Of a stretch of DNA of 12,841 nt, positions 1 to 12,788 are shown piece after piece; position 1 is the stretch's first letter; every line of letters begins with the position of its first letter. Where the stretch lies: NCBI GenBank assembly GCA_042217695.1, contig JBDGSE010000034.1:1-12841 (forward strand). The letters are read 5' to 3'. The stretch is from Candidatus Nanohaloarchaea archaeon (GTDB taxonomy: Archaea; Nanohalarchaeota; Nanosalinia; Nanosalinales; Nanosalinaceae). The position numbers were made by a program, and so were the translations under genes. Below the pieces are notes generated by a model, which was given only the letters and a program-made list of their open reading frames with translations, did no database searches and was not told the origin of the DNA.

Positions 1-50
1 CCGTCCGTACCGCCCCGGGGTACGATGATAGTCCACTACACTACCCCGCC
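1..50 (-). tRNA. tRNA-Pro (anticodon GGG), 5' part only; 3' end lies beyond the window edge
   Basis: Reverse complement reads GGCGGGG TA GTGT AGTGGACTA TCAT C GTACC CCGGGGC GGTAC GGAC GG: 7-nt acceptor strand, U8-A9, D-arm with A14/G15/G18G19, perfect 5-bp anticodon stem, 7-nt loop with central GGG and G37. Position 33 is C rather than U. Confidence 0.75.
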
Positions 51-180
51 AAACGGAGATCCGTTTGAGCGATCAAGCCGCGCAAGGCGGCTTCCGGGCC
101 GAGAAAACCTCCCGGTTTTCGACCCCGTCAACTCGTTACGCTGAGTTGACACGCAAGAAGGCATTCAAACAGAATGCCTT
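51..180. repeat. Array of five adjacent short inverted repeats abutting the tRNA-Pro 5' end
   Basis: AAACGG/CCGTTT (51-66), AAGCCGC/GCGGCTT (75-93), GAAAACC/GGTTTTC (103-120), GTCAACTC/GAGTTGAC (127-150), AAGGCATTC/GAATGCCTT (158-180); all perfect stems of 6-9 bp. Confidence 0.85.
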
Positions 181-275
181 TCGGAACCTGGGGGACTGTA
201 GATGTTTTGACCGGAAAGATTCTTTAGTGTTTGTCGCGGGCAAGTTTTACTTTTCGGTCTCTACAACTGAAAAAC

Positions 276-4567: not shown

Positions 4568-4618
4568 AGTCGGCCCTCATAATCCCAACCCCCCGTAAAA
4601 CCGATTTGTGCGTCACAC

Positions 4619-4652
4619 TATTTAATTATAGGGTGCGGCCCGGCTTTATTAA
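4619..4652. promoter_or_regulatory. Divergent TATA-like boxes for scpA (- strand) and the PsiE-like pair (+ strand)
   Basis: TATTTAATTATA (4619-4630) upstream of scpA on the - strand; TTTATTAA (4645-4652) 21-28 nt before ATG 4673, consistent with a leaderless archaeal transcript. Confidence 0.55.
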
Positions 4653-4672
4653 CGGGTAGGAACTATTTTTTT

Positions 4673-8129: not shown

Positions 8130-8153
8130 CTAGCATACATTTATCTGGCAGGA

Positions 8154-8160
8154 TTAAAAA
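8154..8160 (-). promoter_or_regulatory. TATA-like box of smc (leaderless transcript)
   Basis: TTTTTAA on the - strand, 25-31 nt upstream of the smc ATG at 8129. Confidence 0.5.
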
Positions 8161-8191
8161 TCACTTGGAAACGGGAAAGAAAAAGAGGGTG

Positions 8192-10201: not shown

Positions 10202-10269
10202 GGTGATGATGAGGACAGACATCGTCTGACTGGGAAACCAGGGTGATGACAGGTGAACACCTCTGAACC
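10202..10269 (+). ncRNA. Box C/D guide sRNA (2'-O-methylation guide)
   Basis: Box C ATGATGA (10206-10212), D' CTGA (10226-10229), C' GTGATGA (10243-10249), D CTGA (10263-10266); two 13-nt spacers; terminal stem GGT/ACC and internal CTGG-GAAA-CCAG stem give two canonical K-turns; intergenic, followed by a T-tract. Confidence 0.88.
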
Positions 10270-10272
10270 CTG

Positions 10273-10277
10273 TTTTT
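10273..10277 (+). terminator. Oligo-T terminator of the C/D sRNA
   Basis: TTTTT immediately after the terminal stem. Confidence 0.5.
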
Positions 10278-10320
10278 CGGTTCCGGTTATTTTTAATAAG
10301 CGGGAGACCGATTCTTAGTT

Positions 10321-10659
10321 ATGGCCACGGAAGAGGATCAACTTTACGTCAAGCTGGAAGGATACGAACACCTGCTGGACAATCTGGACAGGATAGAGAT
10401 GATAATGGAGAGCATAGAGGAATCGCTGGAAGTGCTCGACGACATAAGGGAACTGAAGACAGACACGCTGGAGACCATTTACGACAACGTCGACCAGCTC
10501 AACCAGAAACTTGACGAAGTCGGTGGAGGGATGCCGCAACTTGAAGAAGGCGACCGCCAGCTATCTGTTTCAGAACCGGAAGATGTTGAGATAGATGACT
10601 CGGTGCAGGAGCTACGGTCGGAACTGGACTCTCTCAGAGACGAGCTTTCGAACGTCTAG
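10321..10659 (+). CDS. Acidic coiled-coil hypothetical protein
   Basis: ATG start with TTTTTAAT box about 25-30 nt upstream; host-like acidic composition; short beta motif LYVKLEGY followed by heptad repeats and a C-terminal heptad segment. Confidence 0.8.
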   Translation: MATEEDQLYVKLEGYEHLLDNLDRIEMIMESIEESLEVLDDIRELKTDTLETIYDNVDQLNQKLDEVGGGMPQLEEGDRQLSVSEPEDVEIDDSVQELRSELDSLRDELSNV

Positions 10660-10865
10660 AGTTCCTCTCTGTCCAGCGAAACCCGCCGGATATCCCGTCC
10701 AAGCAGAGTTTTCCGGTCATTCTCTCTGGCTTTCTCGGCTGCCTCATCGAGTATCGATGCACCCTTCTCCTCCAGCACGTTTTCCAGTACATCCTCCACG
10801 TCCTCATCGGTTTCCAGGTCCTTTACTTCCGCGGCATCCATCAGATCATGTAAGGAGAACTCCAT
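10656..10865 (-). CDS. Divergent acidic archaeal histone-fold protein
   Basis: 69 aa; long helix (EDVEDVLENVLEEKGASILDEAAEKA) followed by RKTLLGRDI, matching the histone L2-alpha3 RKTxxxxD signature; ATG 10865 with TATTAAA (- strand) about 25-30 nt upstream. Confidence 0.72.
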   Translation of the reverse strand: MEFSLHDLMDAAEVKDLETDEDVEDVLENVLEEKGASILDEAAEKARENDRKTLLGRDIRRVSLDREEL

Positions 10866-10974
10866 CGCAGGCAAAAAATCGAGGCCCAGTTTAATAGTTC
10901 TTTCCGACGCAGGTATTAACTATCGCGGCCAGGAGGGGATGCAGGAAAGCCTCTCGGGCCATCGCGGAACAGAT

Positions 10975-11100
10975 GCCGGGGATCGAAACTCTTGCGAGTT
11001 TCTCGATCCCGCCGCTAGACAGACACCAGGGTAGCCAAGTTAACTCTTGCCAACCACGCAAATCGCAGATGTGCTGGAGCTGAAGACCTTAAAGGTCTTC
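10975..11100. repeat. Hairpin array with partial copies of the tRNA-Leu 5' end
   Basis: GCCGGGG at 10975 runs into a GGGATC-GAAACTC/GAGTTTC-GATCCC hairpin (10979-11010); ACCAGGGTAGCCAAGT (11025-11040) is 14/16 identical to tRNA nt 1-16; perfect palindrome GAAGACCT-TAA-AGGTCTTC (11082-11100). Confidence 0.7.
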
Positions 11101-11127
11101 AACCTCGTTAATCCAGTAGGCAAGTAT

Positions 11128-11318
11128 GCCGGGGTAGCCAAGTGGCCAAAGGCGACGGACTCAAGACACCGCTTCCTTGAAGGGGGCGGTCAGAGAAGCA
11201 AGCAATCGCGAGCTTGGATACGCATCTTCCTCTGTGAAGATGCTTGACTGGCTTTCCCGTGGAAAGCTGAGATATCCGTTCCCGCAGGGGTTCGCCGGTT
11301 CAAATCCGGTCCCCGGCA
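11128..11318 (+). tRNA. tRNA-Leu (CAA) with intron at 37/38; CCA not encoded
   Basis: Exon 1 11128-11165 GCCGGGG TA GCC AAGTGGCCAAA GGC G ACGGA CTCAAG; exon 2 11274-11318 A TCCGT long variable arm (CCC GCA GGG) GCCGG TTCAAAT CCGGT CCCCGGC A. Perfect acceptor stem, A73. Confidence 0.95.
11166..11273 (+). other. 108-nt archaeal tRNA intron with BHB-type splice motif
   Basis: Central helix CTCA (11160-11163)/TGAG (11268-11271) with 3-nt segments AG|A and AT|A; cleavage restores the 7-nt loop CTCAAGA. Confidence 0.9.
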
Positions 11319-11377
11319 TTTAACCGGCAACCGAAAATCTCCGATTTTCTAGAGCGGGCTTCTCGCCGAGAAGCCAT

Positions 11378-11399
11378 GGTTCAAATCTCCGCCCCGGCA
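11378..11399 (+). repeat. Degenerate copy of a tRNA-Leu-like 3' end (att-like)
   Basis: GGTTCAAATCTCCGCCCCGGCA vs tRNA 11297-11318 GGTTCAAATCCGGTCCCCGGCA, 18/22 identical, 81 bp downstream. Confidence 0.8.
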
Positions 11400-11558
11400 C
11401 CTTTTTCCTGCGCGAGATTTGTTGTCAGAAGTTCCCTTTCCTGTGAGCTCCGGGCCCGATCCGGAATTGCCCAGGTTTTCTCTGTTCAATGGGCAGAGTG
11501 TGGAGGATTCCACGGTTTCCTGCTAACTTTTAAATTCAGATGTTTCTAAGGGGTACCT

Positions 11559-12563: not shown

Positions 12564-12730
12564 CTCAAGAAGTCTTGAGTTCAACTCTTTGTCCAGAACC
12601 AAGGAACGAATTTCACGGCTATGCCGGGTCCTGCCCGGCGACCAGCGCAGCTGGTCATTGCGTACTATCAGCGTAACGATAGCGGGGCGTGGATTGTGAA
12701 CGAAACGGCAGTCGATCCGTTTCAGCGATC
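12564..12730. repeat. Hairpin array downstream of tRNA-iMet
   Basis: CTCAAGA/TCTTGAG (12564-12579), GCCGGG/CCCGGC (12623-12639), GACCAGC/GCTGGTC (12640-12656), CTATC/GATAG (12665-12682), GAAACGG/CCGTTTC (12702-12723). Confidence 0.75.
12680..12701 (-). repeat. Direct repeat of the tRNA-iMet 3' end (att-like)
   Basis: + strand TAGCGGGGCGTGGATTGTGAAC vs tRNA 12789-12809 TAGCGGGGCGTGGATT-TGAAC: identical except one inserted G; 109 bp apart. Confidence 0.9.
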
Positions 12731-12788
12731 TTTGAGGCACTTTTTGTAGAACTTATACTTTTTGTGCCGTTTGAACAAAAAGCACAGT

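Follow-up and report, generated by a model that had tools for sequence, protein, structure and literature searches.

The window, a stretch of 12,841 nt that makes up one whole contig of a nanohaloarchaeal genome (G000), contains three tRNA genes accompanied by arrays of hairpins (Table 1). An intron-bearing tRNA-Leu had been recognised in a preliminary description of the sequence, and it was confirmed as tRNA-Leu(CAA), extending from 11128 to 11318 with an intron of 108 nt at 11166-11273. The genes for tRNA-Pro and initiator tRNA-Met are cut by the contig ends. The protein genes are of a housekeeping character, encoding an LMW phosphatase, an HD protein, NFACT, ScpB/ScpA/SMC, AspRS, and a HypA-like protein. 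In an Rfam search of the window only tRNA rose above the threshold, and the hairpin arrays matched no curated RNA model. Without intron mode, ARAGORN detected 0/3 of the window tRNAs; the 1070 calls obtained at a lowered threshold were mostly false and were discarded. Positions 10202-10268 hold a C/D-box sRNA-like sequence with a weak Rfam sR1 match (E=0.05).

Table 1. Features of the window; strands are given relative to the window, and R1 is the model of the element head.
Feature	Position	Strand	Remarks
Source contig C28	whole window		in 757-kb, 44-contig, 83%-complete nanohaloarchaeal genome G000
5' portion of tRNA-Pro (GGG anticodon as read), truncated by contig end	1..49	-	intact orthologs in L395, L411
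Element head (H1, 7-nt linker, H2) joining tRNA-Pro +1, antisense strand	48..96	+	model R1, 26 bits; training copy (A2)
Tail-type hairpin GAA...TTC of first Pro-leader element	103..120	+	
Second stacked head, GTTACGC-loop type	127..183	+	model R1, 48 bits; training copy (A2)
Outer Leu leader unit	10973..11010	+	9-nt Leu 5'-end copy (-2 to +7), then H1-like hairpin; model R1 only 13 bits
Copy of tRNA-Leu positions 1-16	11025..11040	+	14/16 identical
D-loop-class insert	11041..11127	+	arm folding back on 5' copy, linker, 10-bp hairpin 11081-11101
tRNA-Leu(CAA) exon 1, positions 1-37	11128..11165	+	
Predicted intron at 37/38, 108 nt, four hairpins	11166..11273	+	BHB central helix 4/4, no inner h' helix
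tRNA-Leu(CAA) exon 2, positions 38-73	11274..11318	+	
Trailer unit B, two hairpins	11319..11379	+	66/74 identical to unit B behind Leu-UAA, C17
tRNA-Leu(UAA) 3'-end copy, not that of host Leu-CAA	11380..11399	+	20/20 vs Leu-UAA on C17
Trailer unit A, decayed	11400..11453	+	also behind Leu-UAA, Arg-UCG, Ser-CGA
Outer iMet trailer unit: GTTACGC-loop head variant and further hairpins	12564..12679	-	
iMet 3'-end copy, positions 58-73	12680..12695	-	16/16
Inner iMet trailer unit, 93 nt, closing with GAA...TTC hairpin beside copy	12696..12788	-	
3' part of initiator tRNA-Met, cut by contig end	12789..12841	-	full-length identical-type gene in L001

The outer unit of the Leu leader is homologous to the Leu-UAA leader on contig C17. 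The 10-bp hairpin of the D-loop-class insert belongs to a type that recurs on contigs C6, C12, C17, and C30, and the fold-back arm is also present in the relatives' loci L022 and L039. Behind the gene, the trailer units follow each other in the order B-A, versus A-B behind Leu-UAA on C17. Short copies of tRNA ends had been described 81-109 bp from their originals; the distances stood, at 81, 103, and 109 nt, but the copy behind the Leu gene proved to be the Leu-UAA end instead of the host's own. Judged from its sequence, the focal locus shows what appears to be a cassette transfer between the isoacceptors Leu-CAA and Leu-UAA and not an independent insertion.

The Pro array described at 51-180 is real, and was refined as the 5' leader of a minus-strand tRNA-Pro gene. 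The same antisense head accompanies the orthologs in L395 and L411. All three genes have an apparent C33 instead of the usual U, a feature conserved in relatives. Within the window, model R1 gives two matches in the Pro leader, both training copies, and weak ones in the Leu and iMet arrays.

Hairpin density at tRNA genes

In G000, perfect stems of at least 7 bp reach 6.46/kb (55 in 8.5 kb) within 150 nt of tRNA genes; the remaining non-coding DNA has 0.99/kb and ORFs have 0.43/kb. Around the tRNA genes, 54 such stems were counted versus 3.8 +/- 1.7 in 60 dinucleotide shuffles. Perfect stems of at least 6 bp exceed their shuffle means at each locus of the window (P=0.003, 300 shuffles each), with 5 versus 0.27 in the Pro array (51-180), 6 versus 0.75 in the Leu array (10975-11375), and 4 versus 0.27 in the iMet array (12564-12730). 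The packing of hairpins claimed for all three loci is thus borne out, as is their absence from the intergenic regions between protein genes at 4568-4672 and 8130-8191, both of which hold 0 stems of at least 6 bp. Weaker stems were said to extend to 11512 but were not recovered, with 0 stems of at least 6 bp in 11376-11515 and z=-1.5 for 11319-11515. Elsewhere in the genome, G000:C20:2300-2700 is an unexplained intergenic stretch rich in hairpins.

The Leu leader (10249-11153) is reproduced by a contig of sequencing run X1 with 0 differences, and the Leu trailer by contigs of two runs of one study, X1 with 3 differences and X2 with 0. Since contigs of two sequencing runs reproduce leader and trailer, an assembly artefact is unlikely, although X1 is possibly the sample from which the window itself came. 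Other community members carry different introns and leaders at the same tRNA-Leu.

Ten G000 contigs (C1, C22, C27, C28, C30, C31, C32, C34, C36, and C40) terminate in or beside tRNA genes. Because so many contig ends lie there, the arrays are a likely cause of assembly breaks and of low tRNA counts; in practice, assemblies are broken at tRNA genes and tRNAs are missed by annotation. The genome also contains two atypical tRNA-like genes (G000:C20:6948-7025 and C40:57-155), and no RNase P RNA was found in its 83%-complete assembly.

Anatomy of the elements

The arrays very probably represent inserted, non-autonomous elements, and the evidence supports their description as stacks of gene-less, hairpin-ended elements of 50-150 nt at tRNA gene boundaries. 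These elements are likely mobile. One end, the head, consists of a hairpin H1 of the form RAAC...GTTY, a linker of 8-9 nt, and a 9-bp hairpin H2. Model R1 was built from a 28-sequence alignment of this recurring head, in which both sides change in 12/16 pairs. Paired bases fill 92% of cells versus 21-49% for slid partners, with relatedness of the sequences inflating the shuffle control.

At the foot of H1, the two bases 5' of AAC pair with the two bases 3' of GTT in 37/39 and 37/39 heads, while positions 3 and 4 from the foot are complementary in 6/39 and 11/39; the 39 are distinct heads of one sequence type and not all independent events. Where a head abuts a tRNA, the outer base of the foot pair is contributed by the target sequence, being its last base. 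The far end is usually a second hairpin, GAA...TTC, whose junction is less exact (0-11 nt) and lies next to 13-25 nt copied from the end of the host gene. Full heads at each end that share one H2 occur in the double-headed copies L428, L438, L439, and L442, and opposed head pairs in L413 and the C4 intron. Many heads are found without a duplication, and without a tail.

Among 138 tRNA ends, 46 distinct 3' duplications were identified, in which positions 61-73 are identical in 44-46/46. Their left edge spans positions 49 to 61 and lies at 58-59 in 19/46. A TTY-closing hairpin no more than 12 nt from the copy ends 35/46 of the duplication-flanked inserts, compared with 28/3000 random sites (0.9%) and 74/640 sites inside inserts (12%). 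The length distribution of the inserts has clusters near 53-58 and 82-94 nt. In G000, the last 13-22 nt of the gene are repeated once or twice behind about half of the tRNA 3' ends, and a 15-17-nt copy lies clearly upstream of four tRNA 5' ends.

These duplications had been compared with the att scars of tyrosine integrases, a precedent that was not supported. In such a model, mini-circles carrying a tRNA-end attP would be integrated by tyrosine integrases, which are encoded in 43/70 of the genomes compared and many of which adjoin tRNAs. The foreign Leu-UAA end and the permuted order of units A and B in the window would also fit a circle. It is nevertheless a very improbable explanation: the duplicated end normally belongs to the host gene and not to a fixed attP, matching the host gene or a same-ended tRNA in all but one case in G000, and at four different tRNAs unit A closes with the tRNA end of its respective host. 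Furthermore, no head was seen at the junction of tRNA ends adjoining integrases (20 regions fetched and read by eye), and the sites at start codons, at stop codons, and at antisense +1 do not qualify as att sites.

Distribution and target sites

The comparison set comprises 70 genomes of the phylum Nanohaloarchaeota. Heads occur in 40/70 genomes, in 36/49 of the same family, and across 21 genera; model R1 has no match in the remaining 30/70. At E<=0.01 it finds 17 heads in G000, 15 of them at tRNA loci, within 1.1% of the DNA, and two at protein-gene boundaries. The best-scoring 71 of 267 head matches, several training copies among them, were examined in context by eye, and 63 lie at tRNA genes, five at start or stop codons, and three in C/D-box-like RNA. 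The head junctions fall, within 0-3 nt, into four classes, namely position 72/73 (sense), +1 (antisense), the D-loop, and the intron start at 37/38, D-loop-class heads coming after a 5' copy of the tRNA. A pattern scan of metagenomes yielded 37 loci with the same junction classes, about four of which are probably due to chance. A looser two-hairpin descriptor gave many false positives in coding DNA, and a GTDB scan with H2 alone returned mostly bacterial sequences, with three Nanohaloarchaea among the 80 matches listed.

Elements at protein-gene boundaries were seen at G000:C12:9593-9668, C30:20834-20935, C12:12066-12150, and C15:12750-12850; they comprise two antisense arrays directly at start codons, a separate insert that duplicates the first 13 nt of its gene, and another with a 15-nt duplication after a stop codon. 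In L410, L421, and L422, a head directly follows the first guide of a C/D-box-like RNA, the guide being complementary to tRNA-Leu variable-arm sequence. One copy of this RNA has a D-box-like CTGA in the H1 loop.

The strong covariation and conservation of the head, and the persistence of many heads without tail or duplication, could be expected of domesticated RNA or DNA signals that selection keeps for processing, for termination, or as decoys against viral integration. This reading is doubtful in view of the patchy distribution, with 30/70 genomes lacking a head and most Leu-CAA orthologs lacking an intron, and of the occurrence of both orientations; moreover, the foot pair and the acceptor stem would be in competition.

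Another possibility dispenses with a dedicated mobiliser. Repair of nicks in tRNA genes by the host, through fold-back or template switching by a polymerase or primase, would create hairpins, and gene conversion between exons would spread them. Near-perfect stems, a foot that includes target bases, and an arm that folds back on the Leu 5' copy, to which it is complementary, agree with this, as do whole cassettes common to Leu-CAA and Leu-UAA and a 300-nt locus shared by two genera. This locus, Ser-CGA, is 97% identical between L441 (G054:C27) and G000:C4:3455-3753, and consists of the gene, a 134-nt double-headed intron, and the first trailer unit, the match ending at tRNA-derived ends; the identity would reflect either recent horizontal transfer or mis-binning. 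Host repair is still improbable, since fold-back arising de novo would not yield one and the same sequence again and again, and across the 21 genera a single head sequence stands at tRNAs unrelated to each other, at start or stop codons, and in C/D-like RNA.

Taken together, density, module sharing, and empty versus filled alleles support the view, already expressed in the preliminary description, of a non-autonomous, modular hairpin element that repeatedly enters tRNA genes or their surroundings and leaves duplicated ends. Its second precedent, REP-like palindromes spread by HUH transposases, agrees poorly with the data: Y1 is encoded in 4/70 genomes versus heads in 40/70, and the heads of G000 are clustered at tRNA genes and not scattered. 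The tRNA-boundary mini-elements form a real, phylum-wide, and apparently undescribed family, and no published description was found in the literature searched outside subscription journals. The family fits the defining features of no named mobile-element family.

Elements as tRNA introns

In G000, 13/22 tRNA genes with a readable anticodon arm carry introns of 59-144 nt at 37/38, and EndA and RtcB are encoded. The central 4-bp helix of the BHB motif (positions 32-35 with intron -6 to -3) is complete in the window intron. In scripted scoring, 10/13 introns reach 4/4 and 1/13 reaches 3/4; the C2 and C17 introns show 4/4 with a G-U pair, their boundaries having been read by eye. None of the 13 introns examined is accompanied by a duplication. 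The suggestion that the element can also exist as an intron at 37/38 proved apt, splicing being predicted: heads stand at the start of 37/38 introns, and in the focal Leu intron model R1 has no match.

This Leu-CAA intron has no relative elsewhere in G000 and, together with its exons, folds better than 200/200 shuffles. Of 65 pattern matches, 30 were fetched and gave 23 Leu-CAA orthologs, 18/23 of which are intronless and 5/23 of which carry introns of 31-106 nt. These empty and filled alleles accord with the differences between community members at the same tRNA. As ortholog introns are scarce and several have a similar first hairpin or 3' end, the focal intron looks like an older, Leu-specific intron that may later have been enlarged by more hairpins.

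The origin of archaeal tRNA introns is stated to be open, and an Asgard study of October 2026 found no general route (10.64898/2026.10.13.758758). DPANN archaea are described as having L3-loop EndAs and more tRNA disruption (PMC5829648), both of which are consistent with tolerance of introns of this kind. Since the elements sit at gene edges or, as predicted introns, inside genes, they may show how archaeal tRNA introns arise. A single recognisable sequence is met as an intron at 37/38 and also as an insert flanked by a duplication; alleles are empty or filled, and the junctions follow exact rules. Intron gain thereby becomes testable in a phylum of which some members are in culture.

Possible routes of insertion

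The tentatively preferred explanation is that target-primed synthesis copies the elements in, with an RT supplied in trans and, most likely, RNA as the template. The exact, paired head junction, the inexact tail, the variable or absent duplication, and the double heads fit copy-in primed from a 3' end, and resemble target- or twin-primed insertion with template jumping. Template jumping depends on short 3' overhangs (PMC8857657). The coincidence of the insertion sites with tRNA processing ends suggests an RNA template. A free 3' end at a gene boundary would pair by one or two bases with the hairpin foot and prime copying of the element. Joining of the second end would then take place in the T-loop or D-loop of the other strand, so that the intervening 15-21 nt are duplicated. 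An insertion would survive only if one intact gene is left or if it creates a BHB motif that EndA and RtcB, both encoded in G000, can remove. Insertions that return to one fixed site could build up stacks, and recombination between near-identical tRNA exons may move cassettes between isoacceptors, such as Leu-CAA and Leu-UAA, and between lineages.

The distribution of candidate enzymes weighs against this explanation. G000, at 83% completeness, has no match to PF00078, PF01867, PF00589, or PF01797 (RT, Cas1, tyrosine integrase, and Y1, respectively), in keeping with the earlier statement that the window encodes neither integrase nor transposase. Across the 70 genomes, RVT_1 was found in 7, Cas1 above the cut-off in 3, Y1 in 4, and tyrosine integrase in 43. 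No RT was found by PF00078 in 63/70 genomes, including the element-bearing single-contig genome G005. Most of the RTs found belong to DGRs with Avd and A-to-N repeats. In favour of the RT route, DGR-type enzymes occur in 6/70 genomes and account for about 80% of DPANN RTs (PMC8632793). Against it, DGR-bearing genomes have 2-17 heads compared with up to 17 in others, which is not obviously a higher load, and model R1 has no match in the five DGR loci tested. In favour of a DGR link, one locus, L169/L348 (G054:C75), has two tail-type hairpins inserted at the DGR TR end relative to three other DGR loci. The L169 hairpins are most similar to the G000 tRNA arrays, although weakly so (region 42 versus 33 and insert 36 versus 32 in reversed controls). 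Other DGR spacers contain optional hairpins, and the spacer loops of L168, L171, and L175 do not outscore reversed controls.

Two further RT loci were observed. L174 (G067:C29), which we take to be retron-like, encodes a 389-aa RT with two 96-nt hairpin-rich repeats downstream. The 523-aa RT of L172 (G050:C1) is unlike DGR enzymes and possibly represents a defence-type group of which archaeal examples are seldom reported. In addition, a distant viral RT relative was seen.

Several other observations are unfavourable to target-primed reverse transcription. The SRP RNA and 5S rRNA ends of G000 carry no head, the focal Leu intron lacks one, and almost all stem pairs are Watson-Crick, a strand bias of G-U pairs not being clear (G-T 8, A-C 3 in G000). 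The m1A58 methyltransferase TrmI (PF08704) is above the cut-off in 0/70 genomes, and an RT stop at m1A58 was therefore ruled out as the origin of copies starting at 58/59. No autonomous copy, with a head followed by an ORF, was found among the 37 metagenome loci. The alpha-type head has 0 viral matches. A viral donor was likewise rejected, the two matches of the H2 palindrome and the one of the H1 pattern lying in terminator-like or coding contexts with no tRNA; a loose pattern search returned 120 loci, seven with a 4-5-bp stem and none with H2.

Close behind ranks the possibility, rather unlikely in itself, that the same elements are moved as DNA. An integrase or transposase acting in trans would use the terminal hairpins, choose the target base by foot pairing, and make a staggered attack of 15-21 nt on half of a tRNA-shaped DNA, in a casposase- or HUH-like manner. 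Hairpins at both ends (35/46) and the left edge at 58-59, which corresponds to duplications of 15-16 bp, fit this reading equally well; the A. boonei casposase makes duplications of that size at a tRNA-Pro 3' end (PMC5137440). The use of both strands and the Watson-Crick stems also agree with it. The scarcity of Cas1 and Y1, the tail junction of 0-11 nt, the variable duplication length, and the many heads and all 13 introns without a duplication are against it, as is the lack of a head-then-ORF arrangement or a viral match. A casposase- or CRISPR-like array was rejected, with Cas1 at 0 in G000 and above the cut-off in 3/70.

Within the preferred, RT-based explanation, a more specific picture can be put forward with slightly greater reserve. 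The family may be a prokaryotic, SINE-like parasite of tRNA genes whose hairpin RNA would be freed by host processing of pre-tRNA leaders, trailers, and introns, and recopied at tRNA ends by a borrowed RT, for instance of a DPANN DGR, guided by one or two foot pairs. If so, the family would actively supply archaea with new tRNA introns. The foot-pairing rule (37/39) and the two-ended anatomy define substrates for an enzyme search and possibly point to a new site-specific insertion activity.

Comparison with known systems

SINE and non-LTR elements inserted by target priming have one conserved structured end, a variable far end, and a variable duplication. The present family differs in being archaeal, in lacking poly(A), and in that no partner RT-endonuclease was found. 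It is similar in its non-autonomy, its conserved structured end with variable far end and duplication, the 1-2-base homology at the junction, and its double-headed copies.

Haloquadratum PATEs and IS200/IS605 derivatives are small gene-less elements with near-terminal palindromes (PMC3119063). The present family shares small size, lack of genes, and near-terminal palindromes with these and with REP/BIME sequences, and occurrence in hypersaline archaea with the PATEs. Unlike PATEs, IS605, and REP, the family has long duplications (46 at 138 tRNA ends) and targets tRNA boundaries, with Y1 in only 4/70 genomes. To our knowledge, IS605-type elements make no target duplication.

The A. boonei casposase generates a duplication of about 15 bp at the tRNA-Pro 3' end, next to the T-loop (PMC5137440). 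A duplication of this size at a tRNA 3' end beside the T-loop is also made here. In contrast to the casposon, there is no Cas1 in G000, the duplication is variable or absent (left edge 49-61), the tail gap is 0-11 nt, linear TIRs are lacking, and several target classes are used by gene-less elements of 50-150 nt.

In Caldiarchaeum, a tRNA-Thr 5' fragment with a 1.87-kb insertion is described (PMC3293823). Such cases and pNOB8-type integrase islands resemble the elements in the tRNA end duplicated around an insertion and in the tie to intron gain, and differ from these 30-fold smaller inserts, which have no recombinase gene and carry host-specific copies at many tRNAs.

In the Thermoproteales, related BHB introns occur in different tRNA genes (Fujishima et al. 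2010, as summarised in 10.64898/2026.10.13.758758). The nanohaloarchaeal elements resemble these transposed introns in that related sequences are found across tRNA genes and at BHB sites. They differ in that they also lie between genes, where they are flanked by duplicated gene ends and use both strands, and in that they occur at the boundaries of protein genes.
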